Part shown: in pieces, positions 44,620 to 48,716 of the stretch
Position numbering within the stretch: position 1 is the first letter of the stretch
Layout: every line of letters begins with the position of its first letter
Source: an uncultured Mesorhizobium sp.
GTDB lineage: Bacteria > Pseudomonadota > Alphaproteobacteria > Rhizobiales > Rhizobiaceae
Assembly: GCA_964629765.1 (NCBI GenBank)
Contig: CAZVTK010000002.1
Coordinates: forward strand, 32,898-96,897
Length of the DNA: 64,000 nucleotides
Direction of reading: 5' to 3'
Made by a program: the position numbers and the translations under genes
Notes under the pieces: generated by a model
Database searches by the model: none
The model's input: the letters and a program-made list of their open reading frames with translations, nothing else
What the model was told of the DNA's origin: nothing

Positions 44620-45798
44620 TCACCGCGCGGCCGTCCCGGCGGGCTCGCGGTCGAGCGCGATGCCGAATTCGGCCAACACCTCGCCGGTGTGCTCGCCCAG
44701 CACGGGCGGCCGCCCGATCTTGCGCAGCGGGGTCTCCGACAGGCGCAGCGGGTTGGCCACCAGCTTGAACTTGCCGGCGCGCGGGTGGTCGAGCTCGACC
44801 ACGAGGTCGCGCTGGATACGCGGGTCGCTGAACACCTCGTCGAAGGTGCAGACGGGCGCGAACATGGCCCCGGCGTCGAGCAGCGCCTTGTTCCAGTAGG
44901 CGAGGTCCTTCCGGGCGAACGCCTTCGCCAGGCCCTCGTCGACGATGGCGCGATGGGCAAGGCGCCCCTCCTTCGTCGCCAGCCTCTCGTCGGCCAGAAG
45001 CTCGTCGGCGCCCAGCGTCCCGGCGAGTACGCGCCAGAACTTGTCCGTGTGCGCGATCACCATGATGTGCCGCGCGTCGGCGGTCTCGTAGGTGTTGTAG
45101 GGCACGATCTGCCAGTGGGCGTTGCCCAGCCGGCCGGGCGTCTCGCCGGTGGTGAAATAGTAGGAATCGCGCGGGATCATGCTGTAGATCGTGGCGTCGA
45201 TCATCGACAGGTCGACGCGCTGCCCCTTGCCCGTCTTGTCGCGCGCCCGCAACGCCGCCATCACGCCCAGCGTGGACAGGAGCGGCGTGATGAGGTCCGC
45301 ATAGGGCATGCCGGTCTTCAGCGGGCCCGTCTTGTCGTCGCCGGTGAGCTGCATCAGGCCGGAGAGCGCCTGGATCACCGGGTCCATGCCCGGCCGGCTG
45401 GCGTTCTCACCCTCCTGGCCGAAGGCGGTGGTCTGGCAATAGATCAGGCCCGGATTCTCGGCGCTCAGGATCTCGTAGGTGATGCCCAGCTTCTCGGCGA
45501 TGCCGGGGCGGAAATTGACCGCCACGATGTCGACGTGCCGGGCGAGCTCGCGCGCCACGCGCTGGCCGTCGGCCGTCGTCAGGTCGAGCACGATGGAGCG
45601 CTTGTTGCGGTTCATCGTCAGGAAGTAGGCGGCGTCGTCGCCGATGAAGGTCTCGCCGGTCTTGCGGAAGGTGTCGCCCTGCGGCGGCTCGACCTTGATC
45701 ACGTCGGCGCCGAAATCCGCCAACAGCATCGTGCCCATCGGGCCGTTCATCATCTGGGTGAAGTCGAGCACCCGAATACCGTCCAGCGCACCGGCCAT
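44620..45798 (-). CDS. Class III CoA transferase (CaiB/BaiF)
   Basis: LDGIRVLDF, GP..MLLADFGADVIKVEPP.GD, NRNKRS and catalytic Asp in YADLITP. Confidence 0.93.
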   Translation of the reverse strand: MAGALDGIRVLDFTQMMNGPMGTMLLADFGADVIKVEPPQGDTFRKTGETFIGDDAAYFLTMNRNKRSIVLDLTTADGQRVARELARHVDIVAVNFRPGIAEKLGITYEILSAENPGLIYCQTTAFGQEGENASRPGMDPVIQALSGLMQLTGDDKTGPLKTGMPYADLITPLLSTLGVMAALRARDKTGKGQRVDLSMIDATIYSMIPRDSYYFTTGETPGRLGNAHWQIVPYNTYETADARHIMVIAHTDKFWRVLAGTLGADELLADERLATKEGRLAHRAIVDEGLAKAFARKDLAYWNKALLDAGAMFAPVCTFDEVFSDPRIQRDLVVELDHPRAGKFKLVANPLRLSETPLRKIGRPPVLGEHTGEVLAEFGIALDREPAGTAAR

Positions 45799-45840
45799 GG
45801 CCGTCTCCATATTCTAGCGGGCCCAACGATCGATTGGATC

Positions 45841-45855
45841 ATTGGATCAACCTTT
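45841..45855. promoter_or_regulatory. Putative FadR/GntR-type operator ATTGGATCAACCTTT
   Basis: Variant of the motif upstream of the CoA transferase; minus-strand TTGACA at 45883-45888. Confidence 0.6.
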
Positions 45856-45923
45856 GATTCTTATTCAGAAGGCCGGGATTCCTGTCAAGCGGCAAGACCC
45901 CGCCGTCCCCTCATGCCGTCCCC

Positions 45924-47570
45924 TCATGCCGCCGCCGCGATGCCGATCGACTGCCCGTCCGCGCTGCCGCGCACGGCGTCGACCAGCAGCCCCGCGTCGT
46001 GCGGCTCGGCATCGCCGCGCCACGCCACCTGTCCGTCGGGCCGCACCAGCACGAGCTTGCGCCGGTAGAGCGCCGCCGCCTCGGCGTTGTCGATCCGCAC
46101 GACGCGCAGCGGCACCCCGCGAAGCCGCGCCGCGCTCTCGATCGCCGCGCCGTCGGGCGCGTCGGCGCCGAAGCGCAGCAGCACGAATTCCTTGCCGAAC
46201 AGGTCGATCAGCGACTCTCCGGGCGCAAGCCAAACATGCGGCGCGCGCGAGCCGGGCCGCGCGGTCGGCGTATAGGTCTGAACCGTATCCTCCGGCTGCG
46301 GCGTCCCGTCGGGCACGATGATCGGCGAACCCTCGTACATGTAGCCGAGATGGATGCCGATGGAGAACCATTCGCGCTTCATCAGCTCGGTGTAGGCGGC
46401 GCCGAATTCCTTACGCTTCGCCTCCGCCTCCGGCGTGTCCTCGAACATCTCGGGACCGGGCGAAACCACGCGCGGCGAGAGCATGCGCTTCAGGTTGCCG
46501 GTCGCCTCGGCGACGTTGCGCAGCGCGATCGGGCGCATCTCGGTCTCGTAGGTCGCGAGCAATGCCGGGCCGCCCCAGCCGTCGAGCGTCGCCGCCAGCT
46601 TCCACGACAGGTTGACCGCGTCCTGGATGCCCGTGTTCATGCCGAAGCCGCCGGTCGGCGAGGTCAGGTGCGCCGCGTCGCCAGCGATGAAGACGCGCTT
46701 CGTGCCGTAGCTGTCGGCCACGAGCTGACGCCTGACCCAGGGCAGCATGGACAGGATCTCGAAGTCGAATTCCCTGCCCACGGCGCGGACGATGGCGCTG
46801 CGCATGAACGCCTCGGAATGCGTCTGCATGGAGCTGTCGCCGACCAGCGAGAAGCGCCACTGGTCGCGCCCGTTGATGGCCACCAGCGTCGCCCAGGTGC
46901 CTTCCGGGCCGATGAAGATGTAGCGGTAGGCCGGCCTGAGCGCGTGCAGCCCCTCGAGATCGTCGGTGCGGAACACGACGTTGGTCGTGTAGGTCAGCGT
47001 CGGCTCGCCGGCCATCTGGATGCCCAGCGCCTGGCGCACGAAGCTGGCGCCGCCATCGGTGCCGACCAGGTATCGCGAGCGGATCGTCCGCGTCTCGCCG
47101 GTGTCGAGGTCGCGCACGGTGCTGGTGACGCCGTCCTCGTCCTCGACGAAGCCGACGAGCTCGGTCCGGTAGGCGAGCCGGACCGCCGGGAACTGCTCGG
47201 CGAAGCGGCGCAGCACGGGATCGAAGAAGTTCTGCGGACAGCGCTCGCGCTTCTGCGGGCTATGCGGCGGCGGTCTCTCGTCCTGCGGCGCGGGGAACAC
47301 CTCGCGTCCGAACTCGTAGCCGCCGAGCGTGGTCACCCAGGCGCAGTCCTGCGGGTAGGCGCGGTTGTAGCCGGCGCTCTCCACCCACGGCACGATGCCC
47401 CAGCGGCGGCAGAACTCCATCGTTCGGATGCCCACCATGTCCATCTTGGGCTGGAGCACGCGCCCGTCGGAACGCTCGATGAGGGTGCAGGCCGCGCCGC
47501 GGAAGCCCAGGTCGCCCGCCAGTGCGAGGCCGATCGGCCCTGCGCCCGCGATCAGGATAGGTGTGTCCAT
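45924..47570 (-). CDS. FAD-dependent aromatic monooxygenase (PheA/TfdB-like, FAD_binding_3 with C-terminal thioredoxin-like domain)
   Basis: GAGPIGL, GTDGGAS.VR, AGDAAH..PTGGFGMNTGIQDA.NL.WKL, PGSRAPH, LVRPDG.VAWR. Confidence 0.9.
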   Translation of the reverse strand: MDTPILIAGAGPIGLALAGDLGFRGAACTLIERSDGRVLQPKMDMVGIRTMEFCRRWGIVPWVESAGYNRAYPQDCAWVTTLGGYEFGREVFPAPQDERPPPHSPQKRERCPQNFFDPVLRRFAEQFPAVRLAYRTELVGFVEDEDGVTSTVRDLDTGETRTIRSRYLVGTDGGASFVRQALGIQMAGEPTLTYTTNVVFRTDDLEGLHALRPAYRYIFIGPEGTWATLVAINGRDQWRFSLVGDSSMQTHSEAFMRSAIVRAVGREFDFEILSMLPWVRRQLVADSYGTKRVFIAGDAAHLTSPTGGFGMNTGIQDAVNLSWKLAATLDGWGGPALLATYETEMRPIALRNVAEATGNLKRMLSPRVVSPGPEMFEDTPEAEAKRKEFGAAYTELMKREWFSIGIHLGYMYEGSPIIVPDGTPQPEDTVQTYTPTARPGSRAPHVWLAPGESLIDLFGKEFVLLRFGADAPDGAAIESAARLRGVPLRVVRIDNAEAAALYRRKLVLVRPDGQVAWRGDAEPHDAGLLVDAVRGSADGQSIGIAAAA

Positions 47571-47588
47571 TCCCTCAAGTCTCTCGAT

Positions 47589-47662
47589 GCGGTTGCTCGC
47601 AAATGCCGGGCCTGCGGCCCGGCGGGCGGTTGTTCGCGAATGCCGGGCCTGCGGCCCGGCGG
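47589..47662. repeat. Two tandem 37-bp REP-like units, each containing the hairpin GCCGGGCC-TGC-GGCCCGGC
   Basis: Units 47589-47625 and 47626-47662 differ at 2 positions; intergenic. Confidence 0.85.
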
Positions 47663-47672
47663 AAAGTGCCGC

Positions 47673-48716
47673 TCAGGCGTCCTGCTCGCGGTAGAAGCCG
47701 AGCTTTTCCAGGGCCGGGATGTCGTTGACCTGGAAGAGGATCGCCTCCTTGCCGGTATCGTTCAGGTGTTCGTGCGCGGCCCAGGGCGGCAGCGCGAGGA
47801 AGTCGCCCTTGGCCCAGTCGAAGCGCTGCCCGTCGATGATCGTCGCGCCGCTGCCGTCGACCACGTAGTAGACGGCGCTGCCGGTGTGGCGGTGCGCCTT
47901 GGTGTGCACGCCGGGGCGCAGCATCTGCAACCGCGTGCCGATGGTCGGCAGCGCGGGCTCGCCGGTGAGCGGATTCTGGTATTCGAGGATGACGTCGTCA
48001 TAGGGGTCGGGCGCGAGGCCGGCGGCGAGCCGCAGCGCCTGCTCCGCGCGCGCCCATGTGTAGGCCAGCAGCGGGCTGGACTTCTTCGGCGCCGGTTTCT
48101 TCAGCGGCCGCATGATGCCGCTGCCGAACTCGCGGTACGAGCGGTCGGGGATGGGGTCCACCGTCTGACGGGCCTGGTCGAAATCCTCGAAGAAGGTGGC
48201 GTGCATGGAGCGCACCAGCGAGATGTCGAGCACGTCGATCCAGATCATCGGGCCCGTGCCCCGGTGCTCGTGGTCGTGCCAGGCGCCGCTCGGCGTCAGC
48301 ACGAGGTCGCCCTTGTTGACGAGGTACTGCTCGCCGTCGACGATCGTGTCGGCACCCTCGCCTTCCATGATGAAGCGCAGCGCGGAGGCCATGTGCCTGT
48401 GCGCCGTGGCGATCTCGCCGGGCAGGATGTACTGGATCGAGAGCCAGAAGGTCGGCGTCGTGCCGTAGGGCAGGCCGGGATTGGTGAGCCGCAGGGTCCG
48501 GCGCTGGCCGCCGGCCTCCAGCTTCAGCTTGGCGCCGATCTTGTCGAGCAGCATGGAAATGTCGGCCGCTTTCCACAGCACCGGCTTCATCGGCGAGGAG
48601 GGCGTCCTGGAAAAAAGCGGGCCGTCGGTCGGCTGCGCCACCCTGGTGTTGTAGCGCTCCAGCGTGTCAATCAATGCGGCGCGCTCGCTGGCGTCGCTCA
48701 TCTCAACCTTGGCCAT
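47673..48716 (-). CDS. Second gentisate 1,2-dioxygenase-family bicupin (substrate unknown)
   Basis: RRTLRLTNPG, AHRH.ASALRF, TPSGAWHDH, HRHTGSAVY. SD GAGGAGG. Confidence 0.88.
   Translation of the reverse strand: MAKVEMSDASERAALIDTLERYNTRVAQPTDGPLFSRTPSSPMKPVLWKAADISMLLDKIGAKLKLEAGGQRRTLRLTNPGLPYGTTPTFWLSIQYILPGEIATAHRHMASALRFIMEGEGADTIVDGEQYLVNKGDLVLTPSGAWHDHEHRGTGPMIWIDVLDISLVRSMHATFFEDFDQARQTVDPIPDRSYREFGSGIMRPLKKPAPKKSSPLLAYTWARAEQALRLAAGLAPDPYDDVILEYQNPLTGEPALPTIGTRLQMLRPGVHTKAHRHTGSAVYYVVDGSGATIIDGQRFDWAKGDFLALPPWAAHEHLNDTGKEAILFQVNDIPALEKLGFYREQDA

Follow-up and report, generated by a model that had tools for sequence, protein, structure and literature searches.

Why should a genome that holds a complete gentisate pathway carry, 20 kb away, a second set of ring-cleavage genes with a hydroxylase of its own? 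The question is raised by a 64,000-nucleotide stretch of DNA (the window) from an uncultured Mesorhizobium sp., in which a gentisate-1,2-dioxygenase-family bicupin (P0001, hereafter the cupin), a flavin adenine dinucleotide (FAD) monooxygenase (P0003) and a family III CoA-transferase (P0004, CoAT1) are encoded at 44620-48716. The genes were found to lie in a GntR/FCD-controlled regulon which would run a gentisate-type reaction sequence without glutathione and of which they would form the front end. A ring-substituted (alkyl) gentisate, with a probability of about 0.4, is favoured as the substrate over plain gentisate degraded redundantly.

The genes were picked by third-position G+C content, the G+C of the window being 64-72%. 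All three are located on the minus strand, and their third-position G+C of 0.87-0.95 is a strong coding signal; the coordinates and gene identities agreed with those given in the first-pass annotation. The start codon of the cupin is the ATG at 48716, preceded by a GAGGAGG ribosome-binding site. The set 20 kb away, consisting of the comparison cupin P0002, a maiA-type glutathione S-transferase (GST) and a 3-hydroxybenzoate 6-monooxygenase, is a textbook gentisate set (Table 1).

The cupin had been described as keeping the His-x-His..His iron motifs while diverging from P0002 at the N-terminus, and both statements were borne out. The motif residues are H106, H108 and H147 in the N-terminal domain and H275, H277, H315 and H317 in the C-terminal one; the identity with P0002 was 40%, and the alignment began only at residue 39. 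The N-terminal arm of salicylate dioxygenase (SDO) supplies residues to the active site of the neighbouring subunit (PMC10306065), and therefore the divergent N-terminus of the cupin may, by analogy, matter for specificity. The best PDB matches of P0001 were 3BU7, 2D40 and 2PHD with 244, 200 and 178 bits, respectively, all aligned over the full length. The best match of P0002 was 2D40 with 226 bits. With two Cupin_2 stretches in 347 aa, P0001 has the bicupin architecture of the family, the members of which are about 340-370 residues long.

The residues of the cupin were mapped to SDO numbering via the printed alignment. The Fe(II) ligands His119/His121/His160 of SDO correspond to H106/H108/H147 and were invariant in the 118 clade members, i.e. 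the cupin orthologues with at least 61% identity. Arg83, Gln108, Arg127, His162, Trp172 and Asp174, which are strictly conserved in gentisate 1,2-dioxygenases (GDOs) (PMC11264262), correspond to R72, Q95, R114, H149, W159 and D161, each found in 118/118 members. The C-terminal His motif was kept in 110-117 of the 118 and is common elsewhere in the family too. Positions 85, 104 and 106 in the upper cavity are tied to substrate specificity (PMC10306065, PMC11264262); the 5-OH of gentisate is bound by Asp174 and residue 104, the latter being tyrosine in most GDOs (PMC10306065). In the clade, these positions were Thr85 (118/118), Trp104 (115/118) and Ser106 (118/118), which are Thr74/Trp91/Ser93 in the cupin, and P0001 thus differs at all three from the Val/Tyr/Gly of P0002 and of a large canonical group. 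The Thr/Trp/Ser sequences formed one clade in a tree of 129 sequences, which comprised family representatives from an exhaustive HMMER search, named clade members and the cupins of the related loci.

Although the cupin belongs to this distinct clade, its earlier designation as non-gentisate-looking was overstated. All the catalytic and 5-OH-binding residues are kept, and the partner FAH is of the maleylpyruvate-hydrolase type, the score of which (346 bits to maleylpyruvate hydrolase) indicates gentisate-type chemistry. The presence of Asp174 was considered as a proof of a 5-OH substrate and rejected, as almost all sequences of the family tree have this residue; the catalytic residues being near-invariant family-wide, they are useless for inferring the substrate. 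The gentisate model TIGR02272 (cut-off 442 bits) gave 260 bits with P0001 and 272 bits with P0002, and the Corynebacterium glutamicum control genome stayed below the cut-off as well. The cut-off was therefore discarded as a test of a plain GDO: it is too strict to separate true GDOs, failing even P0002 of the textbook cluster. The nominally best NCBIfam match of P0001 was the model of the 5-aminosalicylate dioxygenase MabB (NF049978), with 274 bits far below the cut-off of 650.

The monooxygenase, which had been assigned to the cupin as its own, was confirmed as a protein with FAD_binding_3 (241 bits) and Rng_hyd_C (52 bits) domains. It passed the NCBIfam model NF004780/PRK06126 (673 bits, cut-off 445) and carries the motifs GxGxxG at 9, DG at 172 and GD at 297. 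The closest solved relatives, aligned over the full length, were RebC (2R0C, 391 bits) and StaC (4EIP, 383 bits). The 3-hydroxybenzoate 6-monooxygenase model (NF006021/PRK08163) was not among its 25 best NCBIfam matches, and in the narrow sense it is no homologue of that hydroxylase. No functional name was found for its orthologues in the protein search, and the look-alikes in the ESM Atlas had generic names only. As a member of a conserved gene trio (see below), the monooxygenase is probably the ring hydroxylase which supplies the dioxygenase. The stop codon of its gene is spanned by a perfect 13-bp tandem duplication (GGCATGAGGGGAC x2; 45905-45930, minus strand), and two more RebC-like paralogues with 40-42% identity are encoded in the genome (contigs C5:12629-14245 and C13:15853-17478).

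An FAH gene elsewhere in a FadR-type (GntR/FCD) regulon and the lack of a second GST isomerase had also been noted. The FAH gene is present, and residues 1-288 of its product aligned to residues 1-281 of the maleylpyruvate hydrolase 6JVV. The protein is 60-68% identical to those encoded by FAH genes adjoining cupin orthologues; the 60% identical Hoeflea orthologue matched FAA_hydrolase with 185 bits. No GST isomerase was found in the regulon, and the only other maiA-like GST of the genome is on another contig. The FAH is predicted to be a direct maleylpyruvate-type hydrolase, and an enzyme of this type would hydrolyse the cis product directly, which would explain the missing isomerase.

The evidence for a common regulation came from a 15-bp GntR/FCD-type palindromic operator, AATGGWTGAACCWTT. 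Seven sites were found in the window whereas 0.84 were expected, and none of 100 shuffles reached seven. The positions of the sites (Table 1) suggest that the cupin-monooxygenase, CoAT1 and thiamine diphosphate (ThDP) enzyme-SBP1 (solute-binding protein) genes, co-regulated through the shared operator, are probably three transcription units. The gene of a GntR/FCD regulator is located about 1.2 kb past the window end (genome contig C2), and its product is 54-66% identical to the regulators encoded beside monooxygenase orthologues. The order past the window end, over about 0.1-3.5 kb (L022:1187-4610), is a PrpF/methylitaconate-isomerase-like gene, the GntR/FCD gene, and a FAD_binding_2 flavoprotein gene with an 82-aa open reading frame (ORF). 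Further on, genes of a thiolase, an ADP-forming acyl-CoA synthetase, an acyl-CoA dehydrogenase (ACAD), a third SBP, a MaoC protein and an AMP ligase were found, and five further operator-like sites lie within about 16 kb past the window end. The second ring-cleavage branch proposed in the first-pass annotation, which is under separate regulation, has a hydroxylase and an FAH of its own and lacks a GST isomerase, is supported.

Related loci were collected from genome contigs, plasmids and assemblies and compared by tblastn. Twelve other genomes with a monooxygenase orthologue (47-83% identical) were obtained: Paracoccus, Hoeflea, Sagittula, Sphingomonas, Paraburkholderia, Burkholderia, Cupriavidus, Pigmentiphaga, Ramlibacter, Verticiella, Noviherbaspirillum and Pseudomonas mangiferae. 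In the plasmid collection the DNA matches were only partial, but the loci of Sagittula, Burkholderia and Paraburkholderia were reached through them. In 11 of the 12 genomes, a same-clade cupin is encoded within about 10 kb of the monooxygenase orthologue, and an FAH gene lies within this distance in 11 as well. A GntR/FCD gene was near it in eight by tblastn, with a ninth (Ramlibacter) by Pfam only. The other genes recurred near it less often: the PrpF-family gene in 4/12, the PrpB-type lyase in 3/12, the block of the second CoA-transferase (CoAT2), enoyl-CoA hydratase (ECH), short-chain dehydrogenase/reductase (SDR) and ACAD in 3/12, and CoAT1 in 3-4/12. The ThDP enzyme, the alpha-hydroxy-acid dehydrogenase, the SnoaL-like protein and the SBPs were near it in 0/12. 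Minimal operons were found in Verticiella (monooxygenase-cupin-FAH-TctC-GntR), Pigmentiphaga (GntR followed by monooxygenase-cupin-FAH-PrpF-TctC) and Ramlibacter (monooxygenase-cupin-FAH-PrpF-TctC-GntR-lyase). The orthologous cluster of Cupriavidus basilensis (assembly GCA_000832305.1), a strain included in public RB-TnSeq fitness collections, is at about 718-728 kb of CP010537.1. Judging from these counts and minimal operons, the functional unit is monooxygenase, cupin and FAH rather than monooxygenase, cupin and CoA-transferase. The inclusion of the CoA-transferase in the core was accordingly not borne out; besides recurring sparsely, CoAT1 is preceded by a promoter-like site and an operator that belong to it alone.

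The core trio occurs in at least 13 genomes of alpha-, beta- and gammaproteobacteria, scattered among soil and marine bacteria. Among 400 genomes sampled from the phylum, 11 congeneric species and 13 other genera of the family, no orthologue of the module was found, whereas orthologues with 68-85% identity exist in, among others, Paracoccus, Pseudomonas, Caballeronia, Cupriavidus and Sphingomonas. This combination of patchy absence among relatives and high identity in distant genera points to a horizontal spread of the module. Over 100 clusters of orthologues with 68-85% identity were obtained in the protein search, and all of them bear generic names such as "FAD-dependent oxidoreductase" and "cupin domain-containing protein". 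In several of the other genomes, alkyl-oxidising sets (P450 or Rieske oxygenase with alcohol/aldehyde dehydrogenases) adjoin the core. In Ramlibacter henchirensis (L034:1796-8255), a MarR-controlled set of TctC, ThDP enzyme, 405-aa FAD monooxygenase, 4HBT thioesterase, AMP ligase and MaoC genes is divergent from monooxygenase-cupin-FAH and resembles a ligase/hydroxylase/thioesterase module; its ThDP enzyme is a second case of such an enzyme beside the core, not orthologous to that of the window.

The accessory enzymes were compared with characterized families. The best NCBIfam matches of CoAT1 were the succinate-glutarate (287 bits, cut-off 750) and succinyl-CoA:mesaconate (272 bits) CoA-transferases, both below the cut-off, and no equivalog model was passed; the score with the benzylsuccinate CoA-transferase subunit was 159 bits. 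CoAT1 and CoAT2 are both nearer to glutarate, mesaconate and oxalate transferases than to those of aryl acids. Orthologues of CoAT2 with 73-78% identity adjoin FAH or the monooxygenase in Paraburkholderia, Sphingomonas and Pseudomonas mangiferae. The PrpF-family protein matched 3-methylitaconate isomerase (Mii; PDB 3G7K) with 242 bits, PrpF with 193 bits and oxalomesaconate isomerase with 191 bits. The PrpB-type lyase was the only protein of the genome above the PrpB cut-off. No PrpD and no PrpC above the cut-off were found in the genome (AcnD was not searched for), and therefore the lyase does not seem to serve a methylcitrate cycle. The ThDP enzyme met no NCBIfam cut-off, and its PDB matches were weak, the best being BbmA/CsmA. 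A metallo-beta-lactamase (MBL)-fold gene at 40393-41472 of the window is 38% identical to an MBL hydrolase gene of P. mangiferae which lies between a CoAT1 orthologue (73%) and cupin-FAH (L032:11172-15058), and because of this position of its counterpart it may belong functionally to the ring-cleavage pathway.

From these data the following pathway is proposed, in which every substrate and each reaction step is predicted from the sequences. The RebC-like monooxygenase would convert a hydroxy-aromatic acid to a gentisate-type 2,5-dihydroxy acid, the ring of which would be opened by the Thr/Trp/Ser bicupin between the carbon with the carboxyl group and that with the hydroxyl group. The FAH would split the maleylpyruvate-type product directly to pyruvate and a maleate-type diacid, so that an isomerase is unneeded. 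The ring would most likely carry an extra alkyl (methyl-type) or carboxyalkyl substituent, and in this case an alkylmaleate, for example citraconate, dimethylmaleate or a methylaconitate, is expected as the diacid. Such a diacid could be handled by the methylitaconate-isomerase-like protein, the PrpB-type lyase, the two dicarboxylate-type CoA-transferases and the ECH/SDR/ACAD set. Enzymes of the Mii, PrpB and CoA-transferase types act on branched ene-dicarboxylates and tricarboxylates with an allylic hydrogen (citraconate/itaconate, dimethylmaleate, methylaconitates). Cleavage and hydrolysis of a gentisate substituted at C3 or C4 by an alkyl or carboxyalkyl group would give acids of this kind, and such a gentisate would therefore fit the lower-pathway enzymes. 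CoAT1, the ThDP enzyme, the alpha-hydroxy-acid dehydrogenase and the ABC (ATP-binding cassette) transporter parts are probably genome-specific add-ons around the conserved core.

The ring substituent is favoured because of the Thr/Trp/Ser signature, the canonical set 20 kb away, the Mii-like gene, the lone PrpB-type lyase and the dicarboxylate-type CoA-transferases; the alkyl-oxidising sets adjoining the core in several genomes would fit alkylphenol-type feeds. Of the substituted or heteroaromatic substrate suggested in the first-pass annotation, the substituted gentisate is plausible and unproven, whereas positive evidence for a heteroaromatic one was not found. Several observations speak against a substituted gentisate. 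Neither the monooxygenase group nor the cupin clade contains an assayed enzyme, and Asp174 and the other "gentisate" residues are near-invariant also in family enzymes with other substrates. The isomerase, the lyase and the CoAT2/ECH/SDR/ACAD block are not universal, and the products of the minimal operons must enter the central metabolism without accessory genes, which suits plain gentisate at least as well. Thr85 and Ser106 are polar, which is unexpected for an alkyl substituent. The ECH, SDR, ACAD, CoAT2 and thiolase genes could just as well act on a side chain, which would be shortened before the ring is attacked. Finally, an Amdase/maleate-isomerase-family gene is present elsewhere in the genome, so that plain maleate is not necessarily a dead-end product. 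The more specific proposal that the RebC-like monooxygenase, the Thr/Trp/Ser bicupin, the FAH, the Mii-like protein and the PrpB-type lyase constitute an undescribed, horizontally mobile alkyl-/carboxyalkyl-gentisate pathway with xylenol-, alkylphenol- or arylalkanoate-type sources is accordingly offered as a tentative one, its being wrong in some part being the likelier outcome.

Alternatively, the genes may encode a degradation of plain gentisate which is independent of glutathione and duplicates the NagI-type set. The cupin would then be an ordinary gentisate 1,2-dioxygenase, the FAH would convert maleylpyruvate to maleate and pyruvate, and the monooxygenase would be a non-homologous 3-hydroxybenzoate 6-hydroxylase or salicylate 5-hydroxylase. 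We consider this a fairly likely alternative, although less probable than the substituted gentisate. The complete set of GDO catalytic and 5-OH-binding residues, the FAH score, the minimal operons without extra lower-pathway genes and the Amdase/maleate-isomerase-family gene all agree with it. Duplicate gentisate routes are reportedly known in single strains, e.g. xln/hbz of Pseudomonas alcaligenes NCIMB 9867, which was also counted in its favour. Moreover, the closest solved relative of the cupin, 3BU7, was deposited as a gentisate 1,2-dioxygenase and likewise has two metal sites (PMC10306065). However, plain gentisate does not account for Thr/Trp/Ser instead of the canonical Val/Tyr/Gly at the specificity positions, maleate offers no obvious task to the Mii-like and PrpB-type proteins of a regulon without a methylcitrate cycle, and the window already contains the canonical pathway in full.

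Three further explanations were weighed against the substituted gentisate. CoAT1 is directly downstream of the monooxygenase gene, and an 86% identical homologue is close to the monooxygenase in Paracoccus too. This arrangement would suit a CoA-thioester-dependent hydroxylation of the salicylyl-CoA or 4-hydroxybenzoyl-CoA style, for which phgABC is a precedent (PMC7862547): CoAT1 would make the aryl-CoA, the monooxygenase would act on it, a hydrolase would free the acid and the cupin would cleave it. Hydrolases of three folds do occur beside CoAT1 homologues, namely a dienelactone-hydrolase-family protein in Paracoccus, the MBL-fold protein in the CoAT1-cupin gap of P. mangiferae and an acyl-CoA thioesterase II in Burkholderia YI23, and the window has its own MBL-fold gene. 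This route is nevertheless distinctly improbable: the Cupriavidus, Pigmentiphaga and Verticiella cores have no CoA-activating gene in the operon, CoAT1 has a promoter-like site and an operator of its own, and it is nearest to transferases of aliphatic dicarboxylates. It is very unlikely that the monooxygenase forms an ortho-hydroxy acid other than a gentisate, for example 5-aminosalicylate, a hydroxynaphthoate or a heteroaromatic hydroxy-carboxylate, for cleavage by the cupin. The solved relatives of the monooxygenase act on bulky polycyclic substrates, Trp104 is shared with the broad-range salicylate dioxygenase (PMC10306065), and P0001 scored slightly higher with the MabB model than with the gentisate model, the opposite of P0002. 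But the MabB score is far from its cut-off, neither the regulon nor any of the 12 related loci contains a deaminase like orf7 of mab (PMC9584955), the FAH is of the maleylpyruvate-hydrolase type, and the core is not regularly accompanied by an amidase, a deformylase or another gene for nitrogen handling. The identification of the cupin as a MabB-like 5-aminosalicylate dioxygenase was rejected on the score and the missing deaminase. CoAT1 and the ThDP enzyme belong to the same families as formyl-CoA transferase (Frc) and oxalyl-CoA decarboxylase (Oxc), and CoAT1 scored 212-231 bits with Frc/YfdE-type models. That the two form an oxalate pair unrelated to the ring cleavage is, however, hardly credible: the cut-offs of these models are 442-522 bits, the ThDP enzyme had 83 bits to oxalyl-CoA decarboxylase, which was absent from its best 25 NCBIfam matches, and both genes carry the regulon operator. 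The oxalate assignment was rejected on these scores.

An example of the direct-hydrolysis gentisate pathway is HbzE/HbzF of Pseudomonas alcaligenes NCIMB 9867. As in the maleylpyruvate-hydrolase pathway (6JVV/6JVW), a GDO-family dioxygenase is combined here with an FAH and without a GST, mycothiol or cysteine isomerase. In contrast to it, the hydroxylase is a 548-aa RebC-like protein instead of a 3-hydroxybenzoate 6-hydroxylase of about 400 aa, the cupin is of the Thr/Trp/Ser type, and the regulon adds the Mii-like protein, the PrpB-type lyase and CoA-dependent enzymes. The chemistry predicted from the sequences matches the known direct-hydrolysis gentisate pathway, whereas the hydroxylase family in this role, the Thr/Trp/Ser dioxygenase clade and the link to Mii-like, PrpB-type and CoA-dependent enzymes under a GntR/FCD operator appear to be undescribed. 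In the literature collection, which was incomplete, no paper was found on this monooxygenase group or on the gene combination.

Among the dioxygenases, the best solved match, GDOsp of Silicibacter (Ruegeria) pomeroyi (3BU7), is, like the cupin, a two-domain protein in which each cupin domain carries a His motif, and ferrous centres are found in both of its domains (PMC10306065). It has Val85, Gly106 and a two-residue insertion before Gln108, and falls outside the Thr/Trp/Ser clade. The salicylate 1,2-dioxygenase of Pseudaminobacter salicylatoxidans (2PHD, and 3NL1 for its gentisate complex) shares the fold, the three-His site, Arg83/Gln108/Arg127/His162/Trp172/Asp174 and Trp104 with the cupin; the match was only 178 bits, however, and the enzyme has Ala85, Gly106 and a C-terminal domain without a metal site. 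RebC and StaC belong to the same NCBIfam subfamily, PRK06126, as the monooxygenase. In contrast to theirs, its setting in 13 genomes is catabolic, with ring-cleaving dioxygenase, hydrolase, CoA-transferase, transporter and GntR genes and no indolocarbazole genes, and its substrate must therefore differ. The mab cluster of Comamonas sp. QT12, in which 3-aminobenzoate is converted to 5-aminosalicylate followed by ring cleavage (PMC9584955), has the same logic of flavin hydroxylase, GDO-family dioxygenase and hydrolase, except that a deaminase is absent here.

The lower pathway resembles the end of nicotinate fermentation, where Mii (3G7K) acts with dimethylmalate lyase. The regulon likewise pairs a PrpF-superfamily isomerase closest to Mii with a lyase of the isocitrate lyase (ICL)/phosphoenolpyruvate (PEP)-mutase family, and contains family III CoA-transferases and an acyl-CoA dehydrogenase, which together make an enzyme set for branched C5/C6 dicarboxylates. 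Unlike in nicotinate fermentation, the set is tied to an aromatic ring-cleavage core, and the lyase is of the PrpB type (429 bits) with 153 bits to the dimethylmalate lyase 3FA3. No dedicated hydratase was seen. The itaconate cluster of Pseudomonas aeruginosa reportedly has PrpF-like and acyl-CoA dehydrogenase genes.

The assignment of the substrate would annotate all these generically named genes at once, give the RebC-like flavoenzyme subfamily, so far placed only in indolocarbazole biosynthesis, its first catabolic role and define what Thr/Trp/Ser means for specificity in gentisate-family dioxygenases. If the substrate is an alkylgentisate, the module would contain the missing genes which lead alkylmaleates, possibly from alkylphenol breakdown, to central metabolites. 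If it is plain gentisate, the monooxygenase would represent a third, non-homologous type of gentisate-forming hydroxylase in a glutathione-independent pathway.

Table 1. Positions in the window of the ring-cleavage genes, their neighbours, the canonical comparison set and the operator sites.
Feature	Position	Strand	Remarks
3-Hydroxybenzoate 6-monooxygenase beside P0002	22674-23933		NF006021/PRK08163, 556 bits (cut-off 459)
maiA-type GST beside P0002	25716-26363		271 bits (cut-off 171)
Canonical-type gentisate dioxygenase P0002 (Val/Tyr/Gly), comparison copy	27078-28121	-	
ABC solute-binding protein SBP1, downstream of ThDP enzyme	41525-42613	-	SBP_bac_8/1/11
ThDP-dependent enzyme P0005, 568 aa	42690-44396	-	Three TPP_enzyme domains
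Operator	44501-44515		Exact; in front of ThDP gene, behind minus-strand TTGACT
Family III (CaiB/BaiF) CoA-transferase CoAT1 (P0004), 396 aa, accessory	44620-45810	-	CoA_transf_3, 409 bits
Operator	45841-45855		Between monooxygenase and CoAT1, just downstream of minus-strand TTGACA
RebC-like group A FAD monooxygenase P0003, 548 aa, predicted ring hydroxylase	45924-47570	-	FAD_binding_3 + Rng_hyd_C
Gentisate-1,2-dioxygenase-family bicupin P0001, 347 aa, Thr/Trp/Ser clade	47673-48716	-	Pfam Cupin_2 x2; His motifs in both domains
Operator	48817-48831		Exact; cupin/SBP2 divergent region
Operator	48944-48958		1 mismatch; overlaps -10 of plus-strand promoter-like site for SBP2
SBP2, first gene of divergent operon	48989-50068	+	Sec-type signal peptide; Pfam SBP families; start read from sequence
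FMN-dependent alpha-hydroxy-acid dehydrogenase	50151-51392	+	FMN_dh, 426 bits; L-lactate dehydrogenase subfamily, 321 bits, below cut-off
SnoaL-like protein	51432-51935	+	SnoaL_4
Operator	56729-56743		Exact; flanking PrpB-type lyase gene
PrpB-type (methylisocitrate-lyase-like) lyase, PEP-mutase/ICL family	56777-57691	-	TIGR02317, 429 bits (cut-off 354)
Operator	57763-57777		Between PrpB-type lyase gene and CoAT2
Second family III CoA-transferase CoAT2	57799-58938	+	CoA_transf_3, 320 bits
FAH-family hydrolase, maleylpyruvate-hydrolase type	58935-59816	+	346 bits to PDB 6JVV/6JVW
MFS transporter	59838-61205	-	MFS_1
ECH family protein	61129-62064	+	ECH_1; orthologues 74-75% identical in three related clusters
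Operator	61153-61167		Exact on minus strand; MFS/ECH divergent pair
SDR oxidoreductase	62033-62911	+	adh_short; orthologues 70-73% identical
ACAD, runs past window end	62926-64000	+	Acyl-CoA_dh domains

In the same window, the ABC permease ORF at 53462-55591 encodes 709 aa with two BPD_transp_1 stretches and is apparently a fused double permease.

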